Below are positions 12,778 through 62,811 of a stretch of DNA of 64,000 nucleotides, piece by piece (positions within the stretch are counted from its first letter, which is position 1; each line of letters begins with the position of its first letter). Origin of the DNA: Lama guanicoe (Eukaryota); contig MU053559.1 of assembly GCA_013239625.1 (NCBI GenBank), positions 930,001 to 994,000 of the forward strand. The letters run 5' to 3'. A program made the translations under genes and the position numbers. The notes beneath the pieces are model-generated. The model ran no database searches. It saw nothing but the letters and a program-made list of their open reading frames with translations, and was not told the origin of the DNA.

Positions 12778-52960
<40,183 letters not shown>

Positions 52961-53862
52961 CACCCCACCCTGAGAACCCCCAAATCCCTGGGCAACCCCT
53001 GTCTGGGCCTGACTCCATTTCTCACTTTTGGAATCTCATCCCTTGAGAAGCTCTCTCCTGGATCGCCAAGATCCCTCTTCTCACTCCTCAGAATGCCCAC
53101 ATCCCTGAGGGAACCTCACTCCTGGTCCTAAATCCAGTTCTCACATTTGGAATTCCTGAGTCCTTTTAAAAGCCCACTCCCGGTCACCTAAAGACCTACT
53201 TCTCCATTTTAGAACCTCCGAATTCCTGAAGACCTCCACTCCTGGTCCCCCCAGAGTGTGTTTTCCTTCCTGGGAGCTCCCAAACACCAGGCAACTCCTC
53301 CTGGGGCCCTGAAATCCCTGGAAAACCCCACTCCTGGTCCCAGATCTCTCAAGCACACCTTGTTCCCCATCCCTTAAGAAACTCCTACCTTTGAGACCCT
53401 TTCTATAGATCTCCCATCTCTGGAGATCCACCCCTTCCAATGCCACCACCCAGCCCCACAAGGACTTCCCTTCACCCCCCCACCACCCCCATTCAACACA
53501 CTGGGAGCTCCTCCCGCTGCTAGGACCCCCTCAGTTCCCCAGGGACCCCTGCCCCACTTTCCTGCCTCTGACAGCTGTCTTTAAATATGCAAACTCCACC
53601 CATCCTCCCAGAATCCTTTGCACACAGAAGGCCAGTGGTCCCCCACTTCCCCACCTTTGCCGTGATGTCTGTGTCTGTGACTGACGTGGCCTCCTCTCGT
53701 GCCGTGCTTGGCATATGTGGTCCTCGTTCATCGTGCCGCCTGTGGTGATGCGTGCAGTGGCGCTGTTTGTGTGGTCCGCACCTCCCCCTGACCTCCACTC
53801 CTTGCCTGGACTCACCCTCACCCTCAGCGGCTCTGAACCCCATGAGAAGAGTCGGGAAGCAA

Positions 53863-53868
53863 AATAAA
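53863..53868 (+). terminator. SYN1: SYN1 polyadenylation signal
   Basis: AATAAA about 900 nt after the Ia stop codon. Confidence 0.85.
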
Positions 53869-54316
53869 CAAGCAAAGGCCCAGCAGAATTCTGTGCTTCT
53901 TGGTGAAGAAAGAAGGGAGTCCTTGAACGGTGGGGGAAACACAGGGGACCCCCAAATCCACATGGGGTGCTGGGGACCCCAAAATCCAGTGGAAGGCACA
54001 TCAGGCACAAATTTCCAGAGAGGTTATGAGTGGAATCCCTGCCACAAATCCCAGCCATTGGAGATGGCGGAGCTCCTGAATTTAGAAGTATCCCCAAAGC
54101 CAAGAGGAAACCAAACTATGGAGGCAGGGGTCTCCAGCTTTGGGGGTCCAATTCCAGAAGAACTGAAAAAGTACATAGGGAACCTCTCTTCTCCCAGGGC
54201 AGGGATGGGGGATCCTGAGGCAGTATCAGGGCAGAGACAGAACATTGATTGGTTGGTGGGCAGGGCTCCTTGGCGTGGCAGGCTGAGATTGGCTCCCTGG
54301 TGGCTGGGGGTGGGGC

Positions 54317-54451
54317 CTAAGGCACAAGGCGGGCTGCGCTGAGTAGGCAGGCAGGCAACTCATCAGCCTGGGTACGGTGCAAGGAGGGTTCGGAGGCACT
54401 CCGCTCAATCTTGGGGAGTGACCGCTGCAGCAGCTCAATCGTGGCCAGGAT
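54317..54451 (-). CDS. ARAF: ARAF exon 16
   Basis: [25 protein letters not shown]...ARLVP*. Confidence 0.95.
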
Positions 54452-57400
54452 CTGGGGGCAGGGGTGGGTGAGGAGGGGTGTCCAGAGCCGCGTGGGCACC
54501 CCAGCACCCCCAGACCTCAGCCTAACGAGGAATCGCATACACACGTCTTACACCTTGGAGCCTTGCACACACACGGTTCGCGTTCGCTCCTCAGAGGCTC
54601 CCTCCCCAGGGTGTCCAGACCTCCTCCCCAGCCCACCTGGGGGAAGAGAGGCCGCTCCTCCCGTTGGAACTTGAGGCAATCAGACAGCAGGCGCCGCATG
54701 GCCTTGGGGCAGTTGCTGGAGATTTTGCTGAGGTCCGGGGACAGATAGCCACGGCCCACCATAAAGATAATCTGTTGGGGCGGGGAGGAATGGGGTGATT
54801 GGGGCAGTCCGGGCTGGGAAGCCCAGGGAGTTAGGGGTCTTGAGGGACTTGGGGGGCTCCTTTTTGGGTTATTCTGGGTATTGGGGCCCAGAGGATTGTG
54901 GGTATCTTGTGGCTCTAAGGATTCTGGGTCTCTGAGGACTTGGAAGGATTCTCTGCTTACAGAACAGAGGGATTTCAGCTTAGGGGAAGTCAAAAGTTGT
55001 GTGTCCAGGGCCCAGAGGGTTATGGGTCCACAGGTTTCTAAGGGGCTTAGGGACCTAGAAAGTACTGGGTCTGGGGGAAACATGAAATTCTGGGTCTGAA
55101 GGGGGCTAAAGGATTCTAGCCCTCAGGACTTTATATTTCTGTGGGGGTCTGGAGCCTAAAGTACTGGGGGTTCCAGATACCGAAGCCTGCTGGATACTGA
55201 AGGCCCAAATGGTTGTGGGTATCTGTGAGGATCCCAGAAGCACAGATGGAATGTTTCTGGGCTGTGGGGATTTGGAGCACCCAGGTTAGAGGGCCGTGCG
55301 TGTCTAGGGGTCCAGAGGGCTTCTGGGCATCTCCGGGTATGGGGGATTCAGGAGATTCTGGACTTTGAGGACCCAGATGATTGCGGATGTAGGGGAAGGA
55401 GGCAATTCTGGGTACAGGAGACCCAGGGGATTCTGGGAGTTCTCAGCCCAGAATATTTGCAGTTTCTAGGGGAAGTGTGGCATTCTCAGTCTGTGCAAAG
55501 AAGGAGGTCTGGGGTTTGAAGGCTGATGGGATCCCTTGGCCTGGGAGACAGCGGGTAAGGTGTGGGGCTCACCTGGTCACGGCTGCCAATGTGGCTGTAA
55601 GGCAGTGAGCCAGTCATGAGTTCGTAGAGCACAACCCCATAGGCGTAGACATCCGACTGGAAGCTGTAGGGGTTTGGGTCCTGCATACGGATCACCTCAG
55701 CTGCCTTCAATAAGCCAGACCGAACAGGAGGAACATGGAGGTCAGCAAACAACTGGTCCATAGTCCCAGATCCCATCAGCCACACTGGGTATAACTCAGA
55801 GCCAGCCACACGAGGTGAAGCATGAGTGGTCCAGACCCCCACACCTGGCACTGGCATCCCTGTTCCCACTCAGCCTCCCACATCATAGCCCAGCAGCTTA
55901 TGTCCCTACCTGCCCCCAGTCCAGCCTGGCCCAACTCACCATCCACAGCACCGAGCCCGAGGGCTGCTCCAAGGGCTGGGCCCCGCTCCACCGCGTCTTC
56001 ACTGTGGCCAAGCCAAAGTCTCCGATCTTCACCGTGAGCCCCTCGTGTAGGAAGATGTCCACCAGGGTCAAGGACCAAAAGCCATGCTTCTCGCCCTGAC
56101 TGACGCCTCCACACGAGTCATGCCTCTAACCCTGACCAGAAGACCCTCAATGTCACACGAACTAACCACAACCTTGATATGGGTGGGGAGCTTCAATTAA
56201 TGCCCCCTACACTCAGCCCCCCATGACACCTGACTAGGAAGCTCCTCTGATGGTATCCATACCCGCCATGCCTGTGATTCGGACCAGAAACGCCCCATAA
56301 TGTCCTCCCAAACTGCCACTCCTCAGACCCTAAACTGTGAGTTGCACTGAACAGCCCAACACACAAGAACAGCACCTGAACCAGCCCCAACTCTGACTCC
56401 TGACCAAGAGACCCCCATTAAAGGCCCCTCACCAGCCACAGCTCTGGCACCCGGCAAAGGGAATTGCCCCACGTGCCCCTCCCTGTTCACCCCCAGAGAG
56501 CCCCCCACAAGAGCCATTCCTCTAAGCCCTCGTCCTGTTAGGCACCCCCCACCCTACCCCAGCCCTCAGACAGGGACAGTGAGATACTGTTAGACTTGAG
56601 ATCTCGGTGGATGATGTTCTTGGCATGGAGGTAGCTGTGGGGGTAGAAGAGGTGGCAAATTATCTGGGGGCTATTGCCTCTGCCCACCCCCAGGTCCCCC
56701 AGTCTCTCCCGAGTCCCTGGGCCAGGATGCTCACTCCATGCCCTGGGCCGTCTGCCGGGCCACATCAATGAGCTGGACCATGTCAAAGCGCGTGTCGGCC
56801 ACATGCAGGTGGTGGTAGAGACTGGAGCCCTCGCACCACTGTGTGATGATGGCAAATCCCGGCCGGGTCATGAAGCCCATGAACAGCAAGATGTTGACGT
56901 GCCGCGTCTTCCTGCAGGCAGGGCGGGCGGTATCAGGGCAGGGAGGGCAGACAGCAACTTTCTGAGCATCGAGAACGGCGCTGTTCACTGCTGCCTTCTG
57001 TCAACATTGCTACCCTGTCTTCCAGGAGGCTCAGGGCCCGAGTATGGCCAGATTCAATGAATCTGTGAGATCTGTTTGCTGGGCTGTGATTCCATCCTGG
57101 GGGCTTATGTCCTGAGCTTCCTCATCCAGGTCTCCCAACAAAAGCAGGAGGGAGGGAGTACCACCCTCACCCACTACTGATTAGGGGCACACCACTGACC
57201 CTGACCTGAGCCTATGACCATTTCACGAGATGAGAAAGTGGAAAGCCAACCTTCTCCAGTGATATGTCAACATTATACTGATAAATGCTGGATAAAAATA
57301 TCAGTGACGTGAGATTATATCCTGTTAATCATGAGAAGCTTAAAGGTAACAAGCCTGGGGGGTCTGGATGCAAATGAGATCTTATGTTCCAATCCAGGCT

Positions 57401-60400
57401 TCCCTGGGTACTCATGTGCCATCTCAGGGAAGACACATAACCTCTCTGTGCCTCATTTTCCTCAACTGAAAAACTGTGGTAATTATATGAGCTACCAGAC
57501 AGGGATGTTGGGAGAAGTATGTGAGTAAATAACCTGTGAGGTGCATTGAACAGCCCAACACAACCAAGTGCCCTGAAAATGTCACAGTCCTTGTTATTAT
57601 CGCTATGGGGGACCTGGTCTACCTCACAGAGAAACTCAATCCTGCGTGAACAGAGCCACCCTCATTCAGAAGAAAACCTTCATCCCCTACATAAGTATTA
57701 ACTACAGTTACAATGGTAACATAAATGCAAAAGTACATCCACGATGCTCCACAATTTTGCTCATGTCAGAGTGGAAAACAGAACGAGTGAGCATTCTTCA
57801 TAGCAGTCAAGTTCTGGTTTCAATACTAACACAATGCAAATTCACAGCCTGCTCAAGTCACTGCCATTTCCCAGAGGGGAGCAGAGACTAAGAGTTTTCT
57901 GACTGCGGCATCCATTGTGAGGATGAATATTAAAAATAGCACAAGGAATTCTGATAACATTAACTCTATATCATAATCACGCCCACTTGTCGGGGGGAAA
58001 AGCCCACACCGGCAATCCCAGGAGTGGGAGTAACTAGGGTGGCAAAAAGGAAGCCCCAGGGCTTAGCGCAAATTAATGAATACAGTATTAATGATATGTT
58101 AGGTAGAGCAGGGTAGGGTGTAGCTCAGTGGTAGAGCACCTGCTTAGCATGCAGGAGGTCCTGAGTTCAATTCCCAGTACCTCCATTAAAAAATAAATAA
58201 ACTTAATGACCTCCCCACCCCTAAAAAAGAATACAGAAATGCTTACTGAAAGAATTAACCAGAGCAATTAACAAAATAAAGAAATAAGCAGACCAACTAC
58301 AACCATTAATCAAATAATGATTAAATTATGGTTCTGATTATAGTTAATCTGGCTCTTTAAAGTACTGTATTATTATAATTAATAACAAGAAGGCAACATG
58401 ATAAACATATACTAACAGTGCAGTACAAGCTGAGAAGGCAGGATGCCTTCCTGGTGATGCAGTTAACTCACATTATGCCATTATCGTAAGTACACTCAAT
58501 AACATTTGCATTACTCTGTTAACCTAAGTACACAGGATAACACATGTGGTGGCAACACACGTGATGGCCTGCGGCCATACCCGTTTCACAGCAGGCCAAT
58601 GAGAAGAGCCTCATTTTGGAGGCAGAGCCGTTAATTAATATCAATATTTACCCAAACAGAACTGATAACATCAACAGAGGACCTCTAGGCATAATCCGTT
58701 TCCCAGGGGGAAACAGACAGACAATTGACGATTCCGGTTATAACACGACACAGATACAGGTACTATGCAGGAGGTGCCCCCAGCATGGCCTTTCCTCAGA
58801 GAGGCCCCCAGGCCATGCCTGCCACCCCCCCCTGCCCCTGTCCACACCCGCGAGCCATCTCACCTGAGCACCTGCATCTCGTTCTTGAAGGCCTGGGCCT
58901 GCTCAGCTGTGGGTTGGGCCACCTTGAGAACCTTCACGGCCACATCACCATGCCACCGCCCGCGAAACACGGTGCCAAACGAGCCCGTCCCGATCCTCTT
59001 CAGCAGCTGCACCTCACTGGGTGGCACCTCCCAGTAATAGCCCGAGTCCCGGTACCCGAGATTCTTCTGTGGGCCACACGGGTGGCATCTCAGGGGCCTG
59101 TCCACATCCTTCATCGCTCAGCCTGTGGAGCCCCCACCAAAGGCGACCCGTCCCCACCCCTGTCCCAGAGCTTACCACTTTCTTCTTGTCGTCGGCCAAG
59201 GGTTTCCGTTCCCGCTGCTCTGAAGGGGACTTGGAATGTGGGGACTTCCTCCCCGAGGACACGCTGGCCGGGCCAGGGCTCCCCCGGGGAACTCCAACGC
59301 CACCACCTCTATTACCAGCAGCTGACTCTGGGCAGTGAGCTGGAAGAAGAGAAGAGGGATGGGAGTCGGAGAGAGGACGTGGACAACAGGAGGCAATCTC
59401 TCCTCTGCCTGGTGCTCCTGTGTCACCCCCACCCCGCCTCAACACCAACCTGGATGAGGCTGGAGTCCATGGGGGCTGTGGTGCTGACCATATGGACGTT
59501 GGGGGTGGACGTGGAGCGGATGCGCTGGAGGGGAGCGTTGGCCGGGGCAGGGAAGGGGAAGTGCTCGGGGTCGCGGTGCTGGGTGCAGGAGCTGGCGGGG
59601 GAAAGGCTGTGAAACCACCGTTGGCTGAATTAGAGAACCAGTAAAGCCGCCCCCTGCCCCTGTCCTACGTGTGTGTCTAGCTCACACACAGTAAACGTCC
59701 ACTGTTATTACTGTTATTCACAGACCATTTACTGAGTACCTGCTGTGTGCCAGATACCATTCGAGACAGTGGAAATAAAACGGTGGCCAAACAGATAAAG
59801 GTTCTTGCCCTCACGGGGCTGGCGGCAGTAGGGAGAGAAATAAAAGACAAAGAATATTTACTATGTCCCATGGTGACAGGTGCAATAAAGCAACATAAGG
59901 AGACAGAAAGTGTCACTGGTGGTGTCAGGAAAGGCTTCCCTGAGCAGGTGACATCTGAGCAAAGACTTAAAGCAGGCAGAGCAAGCCATGCAGATAGCGG
60001 AAGAAGAGCAATATATAATATTGTATAATTATATGTACTATTCAAATATATTATGCATTATATAATGTACAGGATGGTATCTGTATTACAATGGCAATGC
60101 TTTAAGTATATATAATAACATTATCTATGCTACACATGCACATATGTGTAATAGATGATACATATTATATATATGATGTCCCAAAAATATTCCTTAATGT
60201 TTCCTTCACTATCCCAAAATGCAATTCATAGGTAATTAACTCACATACACCCATAATTAAAAATAACATAATGCCCTAACTTTACTATTTTATATATATA
60301 CTGTTTTTATTTATATTACATAAAAATGTTTGATGTTTCACATTATATGAAAATAGTATAAACATAACACATTATACAATAGCATACGTACATATAGACA

Positions 60401-62811
60401 TTATAAAATACATAGACACATAAAATGCATATTATATAAACTTATGACATATTAGAGCAATAATATACTTCAACATTGAAATGCTACAGTATAATCTTAA
60501 CATAAAGGAGAAGTGAAAGGGAATTTATGACAAAATAATATGTATTTCAAAATGAAAAGGCTTGAGCATGGTTATACTGGAAGAATTAACAAGGTAGTTA
60601 GATACATATATAGGTGGGTAGATATTGTAATTAATAATAAGAACTTATTATCCTGTAGCAGATCTTGTCCTAAGCATTGGACATGTCTTAACTCATTTAA
60701 TCCTCACCAGAACCCTATGTCGTAAAAGTATCATTATCCCCTCTTCACAGATGAGAAAACTAAGGCCCAGAAAGATTAGGCGGTTTGCCCAAGGCTCCAC
60801 AGCTTCATGCCCTAAACTCACACTTGTAGGCGCTCAGTAAATGTTTGTCAAGTAAACAAATGAATAAAGTATGGCTTGTGGTCTACAGGGGCCTCCAGAT
60901 CTTTTTCTCCTGACAGCAGCCCTTTAGCTAAGGCATCCCCTACCTGGGACCCTGAGGGGTTAGCGGCTCATTCAGGGGGCGGCTCGAGGGAGTCTCATGC
61001 TGTCTGGAGCCTCCGGACAAATCCTGGACACTGTGGTAGAACCTTGAGAGCATTAAGGGTATAAAGCAAGGGAAGGTGGGTCAGCTGTCTGCGAAAGCCT
61101 CGTGGCTGGGCCTCCATCCTCCCCATCCCCCCAGCCACCCCAGGCCGGGCTCACTGTTGGCGGTTGGTACTCATGTCGACACAGACTGTGGGGACCTTGG
61201 AGGAACAATGCTGGTGGAACTTGTATCCACAGGTTTGGCAGCGGAAGCCATGGAACAGAAACTTACGGCAGAAGTCACAAAATGCCAGGCTGAAGAATGT
61301 CTTCCGTACCTGCTGCCACAGAGCAGAGAAGGGTGAGGCCTGGTCAGGGACCCCCCCCCGCCACACCCACGGTCTGCCCCCCGTCTCTACCCTCAACTCA
61401 CAAAATTGTGCATGGTCAGCGGGACGTCTTCGAGGACCTCCACGATGAGCTCCTCGCCATCCAGGGGGGCAATGGCCGTGTCCCAGGCAGTGACTGTCTT
61501 TCGCCTGCAGAAGGCGTGGAAAGGAGTGAGTGGGAGGGTGGACAGGGGCCGTGGGGAGGAAGGAAACCCCTAAAAGTCCCATCAAGCCTGCCATTCATGG
61601 AGTAACAGATGACGTGTTTCATTCTCGTCAGGGCAACTCGGGGGACTAGTGCTCTCCTTGCCCCCATTTTACGGATGGGGAAACTGAGGCTCAGAGGGAT
61701 GAAGTGACTTGTCCAAAGCCACGAGGGATGATGAGTGGCAGGACAGTGTGAAGAGTCCATGCTTTTAATCACGAGCCGAGGAGCAAATGAAACAGTGTAG
61801 AAACAACTAAATCTCAGAAGTACTGAGCAAGCCCCCAACAAAGCAGCTGGTGAGGCCCTGAAATAAATAAAAAGCACTGCGTGGATAAACAAGGTCCTAT
61901 TGTATAACACAGGGAACTATATTCAATTCCTTGTAATGGCCTATAATGAAAAAGAATATGAAAAGGAGTATGTATATAACTGAATCACTATGCTGTACAC
62001 CAGAAATTAACACAACATTGTAAACTGACTATACTTCAATTTTTAAAAAAGCAATGTGTGAATGGAATACAAAAGTTAAGAACCCGAGAACAGAGGAATA
62101 AATGGAAGGTCAGCAAGGCCCACACAGCAGACAGAGAATGAGGAAACCGAGGAAGGAGAGAGCTGACAAGTTGATAAAACAGTGAAAGGACAAACATGAA
62201 TTCTGGGAGGAGGAGACAGAGTGTGGTGAAGACTTGGGGCCCAAGAAGTAGGTAAGTTGCTGACCTTCCAGGCCAACAAACGAACTAACAAAGTAATGAG
62301 ACAAAAGTGGGATGGACTCACGGATTCACTGAAATAAGGGAAGATTATGAGAGACTCTACAGTAGAGTGGAATCGAATGACTCTAAGGAGGGGAGGGAAG
62401 GCTGGGCGCCCAGTTGGGGGCCGGGGTGCCACACTTACCCCTTGATGAGCCGGTAGACCACACAGCAATCCTGATTGAGACCCCGCACCTTGAGGGCCTT
62501 GTCTAGAGAGTCGTAAACACTCATGCCATCCCGGACAGTCACCTGTGTGTGTGTGTGCGCGCGCAGATGTGAGGAGTCAGTGCCCGACAAAGTCCCCAGC
62601 CGCTCCCCTCGGCCCTCTGCAAAGGCCCCCTTCCAGCCCTTGTCACCCTTCTGATCCAAGACTTATAACCGGATCCACGCCCACCCCTCACCAGCTGTGC
62701 TCCCATCACACTCACCACCGTGCGTTGCTTGTTGGGCAGGTACACTTTGACGGTGCCCACTGCCCGGGACGGCTCGGCCCCGTTGGCAGGGGGGCCCCGC
62801 GATGGCTCCAT
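54317..62811 (-). CDS. ARAF: A-Raf serine/threonine kinase; frame disrupted at exon 8/9 as read
   Basis: complement exons 62716-62811,62439-62542,61402-61504,61155-61309,60944-61042,59450-59591,[59325-59339 remnant],59176-59321,58864-59066,56735-56911,56588-56634,55940-56058,55573-55704,54637-54771,54317-54451; RBD, C1, RSTSTP, GTGSFG, HRDLKSN, DFG motifs. Confidence 0.95.
54637..54771 (-). CDS. ARAF: ARAF exon 15
   Basis: [14 protein letters not shown]...ERPLFPQ. Confidence 0.95.
55573..55704 (-). CDS. ARAF: ARAF exon 14
   Basis: [23 protein letters not shown]...SRDQ; AAG acceptor. Confidence 0.95.
55940..56058 (-). CDS. ARAF: ARAF exon 13 (DFG / activation segment)
   Basis: [26 protein letters not shown]...VLWM; preceded by GG rather than AG. 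Confidence 0.93.
56588..56634 (-). CDS. ARAF: ARAF exon 12 (catalytic loop)
   Basis: [15 protein letters not shown]. Confidence 0.95.
56735..56911 (-). CDS. ARAF: ARAF exon 11
   Basis: [13 protein letters not shown]...TAQGM. Confidence 0.95.
58110..58230 (+). mobile_element. tRNA-derived SINE (Vic-1-like)
   Basis: gggtgtagctcagtggtagagcacctgcttagcatgcaggaggtcctgagttcaattccc. Confidence 0.85.
58864..59066 (-). CDS. ARAF: ARAF exon 10 (N-region, Gly loop)
   Basis: [14 protein letters not shown]...IGTGSFGTV...MQVLR. Confidence 0.95.
59176..59339 (-). CDS. ARAF: ARAF exon 9 (59176-59321) fused to truncated exon 8 (59325-59339)
   Basis: LTAQS remnant, then CAG, then AAGNRGG...ADDKKKV in a different frame. 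Confidence 0.8.
59450..59591 (-). CDS. ARAF: ARAF exon 7 (CR2)
   Basis: [27 protein letters not shown]. Confidence 0.95.
60944..61042 (-). CDS. ARAF: ARAF exon 6
   Basis: [16 protein letters not shown]...PQGP. Confidence 0.93.
61155..61309 (-). CDS. ARAF: ARAF exon 5 (C1 domain)
   Basis: [14 protein letters not shown]...[12 protein letters not shown]. Confidence 0.95.
61402..61504 (-). CDS. ARAF: ARAF exon 4
   Basis: [34 protein letters not shown]. Confidence 0.95.
61880..62050 (+). mobile_element. Short L1 3' end (artiodactyl-type); similar antisense pieces near 33510-33680 and 38275-38455
   Basis: aacaaggtcctattgtataacacagggaactatattcaa...actatacttcaatt A-tail. Confidence 0.75.
62439..62542 (-). 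CDS. ARAF: ARAF exon 3
   Basis: [35 protein letters not shown]. Confidence 0.95.
62716..62811 (-). CDS. ARAF: ARAF exon 2, coding part (exon starts at 62870)
   Basis: [32 protein letters not shown]. Confidence 0.95.

Follow-up and report, generated by a model that had tools for sequence, protein, structure and literature searches.

The window, a stretch of 64,000 nucleotides from the Lama guanicoe assembly, carries ARAF on its minus strand, with coding exons 2-16 spanning 62811 to 54317. Tail to tail with it, at 50600-54000 on the plus strand, lie 3' end exons that, from their reading frame, we take to belong to a SYN1-like gene. Identification as the ARAF orthologue rests on RBD, C1 and kinase domains of near identity, on a single locus, and on a GT-GG U12-type intron. 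The latter, intron 12 (56587-56059, minus strand), opens with gtatct, and a tccttgac motif precedes its terminal GG. The GG acceptor of exon 13 was considered as a second lesion and rejected, since a GT-GG U12-type intron is listed for human and mouse ARAF (PMC1557818, Table 3). Searching the same assembly with the ARAF stretch returned a single match, and a second, intact ARAF copy was rejected on this ground. The features around the site of interest are as follows:

60944..62811, minus strand: coding exons 2-6 (RBD, C1), with the DA-Raf1 (186 aa) and DA-Raf2 (153 aa) frames intact
59450..59591, minus strand: exon 7 (142 nt), donor CAG/gttggt, aligning gap-free to Camelus P0049
59340..59449, minus strand: intron 7 (110 nt), with a strong pyrimidine tract
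Within intron 7, minus strand: weak alternative donors at +4 (first base 59445) and +17 (59432)
59325..59339, minus strand: exon 8 remnant, 15 of 28 nt (LTAQS)
Inside the exon 8 remnant, minus strand: acceptors at the second CAG (next base 59327) and at GAG (next base 59325)
59324..59325, minus strand: the join, where about 89 nt are absent as judged from the dromedary read-through model P0151
59322..59324, minus strand: final CAG of intron 8; P0151 ends N-C-S-C-W-stop across the site
59176..59321, minus strand: exon 9 (146 nt), donor GTG/gtaagc
59291..59297, minus strand: two altered codons, with V in place of D (middle base 59297) and of A (middle base 59291)
54317..59066, minus strand: exons 10-16 (kinase domain), open, protein identical to Camelus

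There is no N in the window, the join included. On the minus strand, 59345-59308 read ttccag/CTC ACT GCC CAG AGT cag/CT GCT GGT AAT AGA, so that, as the earlier note on this DNA had described, 15 nt of exon 8 precede the CAG acceptor of exon 9. We compared the gene with Camelus ARAF (P0049, 606 aa; XP_031301184.1 and identical records, three RefSeq accessions), in which Pfam places RBD, C1_1 and kinase domains, the kinase beginning at residue 311. A model spliced at the GAG acceptor (598 aa) is identical to it at 594 of 598 residues in the protein alignment, and the joined exons show one 8-residue gap, at the exon 8/9 junction, and none elsewhere. The two proteins have the same RBD, C1 and kinase, but Camelus has a whole 28-nt exon 8 (LTAQSFNTD), D and A where the window has V and V, and an intron 8 of 79 nt (P0151). 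Outside the join, three amino-acid differences from Camelus were found, namely the two valines and T189, at which the window agrees with the other mammals listed and Camelus has S. At five positions (R116, Q152, T170, S173 and G251), the window and Camelus agree and differ from the other mammals listed, which, together with T189, suggests a South American camelid. Exons 10-16, which the earlier note had called intact, hold no amino-acid difference from Camelus and no further disabling change, which is not what a gene lost along the lineage would look like, and their unchanged state argues against an old loss.

The missing segment and the two valines beside it

What the window lacks can be gauged from the dromedary GenBank model P0151, which reads through intron 8 (79 nt, frameshifting). 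The 25 codons of dromedary intron 8 in this model contain 8 Pro and 4 His, indicating that the intron is C-rich on the sense strand. By the same comparison, the window would be missing 13 nt of exon 8, the donor and 76 of the 79 nt of intron 8, about 89 nt in all, a size taken from one protein model and not from DNA; the earlier claim that some 13 coding nt, the donor and nearly all of intron 8 are absent thus holds. Provided that the lost piece resembled the dromedary sequence, the join would be blunt. A 38-aa query for the missing piece in the same assembly, a weak search, gave three matches, all with E > 3. Intron loss through reverse-transcribed mRNA is precise, leaves both exons whole and takes out the AG. 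Nearly the entire short intron is likewise gone from the window, but 13 exon bases are gone with it and the terminal CAG of the intron is retained, and precise intron loss was therefore rejected.

We then considered whether orthologues normally have this arrangement, which on the earlier note's terms would have refuted it; they do not. Besides Camelus, the exon 8 core is present in 131 of the 138 database proteins that span the linker (isoforms of one species counted separately); of the seven lacking it, six are UniRef-only models and one is an unnamed ORF that retains an intron. The linker between C1 and kinase does vary by small indels across mammals. Database annotations for sloth, rhinoceros, horse, desman and fruit bats (P0016, P0031, P0033, P0034, P0083, P0101) keep intron 8 in frame, which adds 25-26 residues, and the second CAG of exon 8 serves as acceptor in the horse and rhinoceros ARAF models. 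Among the protein matches and cluster members listed, none was a South American camelid ARAF; of the 321 members of the main cluster, 40 were examined and 15 listed, and one may lie in the remainder. In the public run listing, 20 of 24 runs hold part of the stretch with a best share of 0.56, a value that spliced RNA and DNA of a relative would explain equally well and that is therefore evidence neither way. Scanning metagenome contigs for a 20-base pattern brought up four loci, whose agreement with the window ends after 20-23 bases. Among the papers listed on ARAF exon 8 splicing and on ARAF in camelids and alpaca, none showed anything on the locus, and literature on the A-Raf IH segment and ARAF constraint gave no matches.

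Two substitutions, which the earlier note does not mention, accompany the join. V for D (59297) and V for A (59291) are the 28th and 34th bases past it, and the pair comprises the only amino-acid changes specific to the window sequence. At the first site, D is found in 128 of 138 database proteins and V in none, and at the second, V is found in 5 of 138. The chance that both substitutions land in those 12 codons is 0.005, a tolerance-weighted and post hoc figure whose weights derive from 24 chosen orthologues with 20 of 275 substitutions within those codons. With GAT and GCT as the camel codons, which we infer from their being the only one-step paths, each changed base would equal the one preceding it on the plus strand. 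Of the mismatches in Illumina sequence-specific error, 49-64% are reported to copy an upstream base, as compared with 25% by chance (PMC3141275). The two changes would fit this miscall pattern, a weak indication on its own at two of two.

Splice routes and predicted products

All three CAG acceptors shift the frame, as the earlier note had stated: splicing to 59339 yields a 164-nt exon and a stop after 287 aa, to 59327 152 nt and 283 aa, and to 59321 146 nt and 281 aa. Frame arithmetic also bears out its two in-frame proposals, the GAG acceptor at 59325 (598 aa) and the +4 donor, which with the CAG acceptors gives 604, 600 or 598 aa. In addition, and with a few further routes, the +17 donor paired with an AG acceptor at 59308 (598 aa) and a joint skip of exons 8 and 9 (548 aa), which the earlier note does not mention, stay in frame. 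An upstream GAG at 59397 (622 aa) was rejected, its intron being only 52 nt long with pyrimidines at 4 of 17 positions, and so was retention of intron 7, which meets a stop at 241 aa. The acceptor at 59339 has pyrimidines at 17 of 17 positions, the highest among 17 acceptor sites scored, and the GAG acceptor sits 14 nt behind it and 2 nt behind the second CAG. Counted as base matches to the donor consensus, the true exon 7 donor reaches 7/9, the +4 donor 3/9 and the +17 donor 4/9. Because the acceptor at 59339 is strong and the true donor scores 7/9 as against 3-4/9 for the alternative donors, we predict that the 164-nt exon would dominate splicing of the assembled allele.

A transcript whose stop lies well above the last junction is generally degraded by NMD. 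In the 287-aa product, 812 nt separate the stop from the last junction and six junctions follow the stop, so that its transcript is a predicted NMD target. If real, the assembled allele is predicted to be near-null and not a DA-Raf-like source. The dosage of such an allele can be read from the assembly, which holds an intact SRY of 240 aa (L013:1321-2043, G000:C8237) whose best solved-structure matches are SRY chains; the animal is therefore male and hemizygous for ARAF, and its X is single-copy, for which about half depth is expected.

One account of the join is a real deletion, private or rare, which would leave this male with a near-null ARAF allele in hemizygous state. The bulk of its transcripts would be spliced to 59339, shift frame and be degraded, a little kinase of 548-604 aa might leak, DA-Raf1/2 would be unaffected, and the two valines would stem from error-prone repair. 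Blunt short deletions are ordinary products of end-joining, and the clean, N-free join is in keeping with one; the unchanged kinase exons fit a recent event, and the DA-Raf frames are intact. In A-Raf-null mice, inbred animals are reported to die at 7-21 days, and outbred ones to survive to adulthood with neurological and movement defects (PMC2409554), the latter being a point in favor of the allele. Nevertheless, this account requires the viable hemizygous loss of a conserved kinase, together with two clustered substitutions in an assembly that has other defects at G/C tracts, and we regard it as unlikely.

A different possibility is that South American camelids carry the deletion as a fixed or common variant and that altered splicing, by the +4 donor, the GAG acceptor, the +17 donor with 59308 or the skip of exons 8 and 9, keeps a full-length kinase, with the two valines reflecting relaxed constraint on the linker. 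In-frame routes do exist, the linker lies between C1 and kinase and tolerates small indels in mammals, the use of the second CAG of exon 8 in the horse and rhinoceros models lends it some precedent, and the matches listed hold no contrary South American camelid ARAF. Four-base shifts are described as a favored class among alternative donors (PMC2423196), which also makes some leak through the +4 donor plausible. However, the alternative donors match the consensus poorly beside the true donor, the strong acceptor at 59339 is undecayed, and neither a rescued nor a frameshifted junction appears in any of the 138 database proteins spanning the linker. Of the database models that use the +4 or +17 donor, the three examined in full (P0020, P0024 and P0025) also mis-model intron 12 and, for this reason, resemble automated guesses. 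A protein search with the frameshift tail gave one match among 53 candidates, an unnamed alternative-frame ORF that retains intron 8. A shared deletion with splicing rescue is, therefore, improbable. Its stronger form, in which South American camelids would share the deletion, lose the default ARAF product, draw their kinase from weak cryptic sites or the 548-aa skip and, with DA-Raf intact, constitute a natural A-Raf hypomorph, appears very improbable.

The earlier note had also likened the 287-aa product to DA-Raf, and this comparison stands in part. DA-Raf1 and DA-Raf2 arise by retention of introns 6 and 5, respectively, and use of an intronic poly(A) site, according to PMC2064279. Both are kinase-less and keep RBD and C1, and so it is with the 287-aa product, in which RBD and C1 are present and the kinase is absent (stop after 287, kinase from 311 in P0049). 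In contrast, DA-Raf1 and DA-Raf2 lack CR2, whereas the 287-aa product keeps CR2, as had been claimed, and gains a foreign tail; it originates from a frameshift with a stop above six junctions, and not from intron retention with an intronic poly(A) and a stop in the last exon. Given the NMD predicted from the position of its stop, a DA-Raf-like role in practice, as a stable protein blocking Ras-ERK signalling, is unlikely. The true DA-Raf1 frame in the window is identical to the Camelus record P0286.

Assembly behavior at G/C tracts and the origin of the join

The 55,231 contigs and short N runs suggest a short-read assembly. Among 63 loci of the same assembly (197,785 bases, some overlapping) that were fetched for other reasons, all three N runs, which may mark gaps or withheld stretches, have a flank of at least 70% G or C; as a background, 121 of 6538 30-mers reach 60% G or C. 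At the start of the HMG box of a SOX1-type gene (L014, G000:C7267), an N run follows a GGC repeat, and 2 nt of the K-R-P-M-N motif are absent about 10 bases from it; the resulting frameshift probably reflects an assembly error. A SOX12-type HMG box (L015, G000:C55221) reads EISQGLG as opposed to EISKRLG in 9 of 10 boxes compared (SOX4, SOX11 and seven others), the comparison being made without a duplicate SOX3 fragment and one divergent box that has V-Q there. Both SOX12 changes copy the preceding base and, set against the other SOX boxes only, are suggestive of an assembly defect. The duplicate fragment itself consists of 238 bases at a contig start (L016, G000:C28390:1-238) that repeat the SOX3 HMG box of L010, and is probably a leftover.

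The case closest to ARAF is an ORP3-type gene (L087:1195-1303, G000:C1600), two consecutive exons of which match human ORP3 167-214 and 227-261; the 12 codons for ORP3 215-226 are gone, without any N, right after C18. The ORP3-type, SOX1 and SOX12 defects were all seen in the assembled sequence alone. The missing ARAF piece is G/C-skewed as well, in line with these defects at such tracts elsewhere in the assembly. The 264 kb surrounding the window contain a single N run, lying in poly-A. G/C runs of 8-10 bases came through assembly there without N, which argues against a blanket failure at such tracts.

Similar behavior has been described for other assemblies. G-quadruplex-prone DNA is reported as under-represented in short-read assemblies (PMC7757076), and Illumina assemblies as containing errors that imitate gene loss (PMC8956264, 10.1101/2022.09.08.507143). 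The false inactivating mutations of the latter two sources resemble the present case in that a conserved gene is frameshifted, odd changes cluster and the rest is unchanged. They differ in that those described are base errors and missing sequence, and the N-free ARAF loss of 89 nt is larger.

On the assembled sequence, we consider it probable that an assembly error over the C-rich tract removed some 89 bases from ARAF exon 8 and intron 8 and that the animal's gene is intact. The missing bases, the frameshift, SRY and the other G/C-tract defects are direct observations; from there on, the account would be that read quality fell across the C/G-rich intron, the X being single-dose, that the two flanks were joined gap-free, and that poor read ends may have left two miscalls within the next 34 bases. 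We favor assembly error because the piece is C-rich, the X is single-dose, the two valines cluster at the join and other G/C tracts in the assembly are defective, and also because the kinase exons are unchanged, A-Raf-null mice are sick and Illumina errors are known to mimic gene loss. Against it stand the lack of N at the join and, judging by P0151, of microhomology for a false overlap. Nor did the weak 38-aa search locate the missing piece on another contig, and the nearby G/C runs assembled N-free likewise count against an error. Of the three outcomes that the earlier note had left side by side, namely cryptic-splice rescue, a recent allele or an assembly error, error is thus the best supported, while cryptic rescue, with its poor sites, fares worst.

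Should the join be an error, gap-free deletions at C-rich intron ends can mimic exon loss in conserved genes of this assembly, and the ORP3-type gene is at least one more case of the same look. If, instead, the allele is real and was carried by a living male, it would represent a natural near-null of A-Raf in a large mammal, comparable with the knockout mice and their gut and nerve defects. Were llamas and alpacas to share the deletion, they would offer a test of whether a mammal can do without the exon 8-9 linker and of how small an amount of full-length A-Raf suffices for it.
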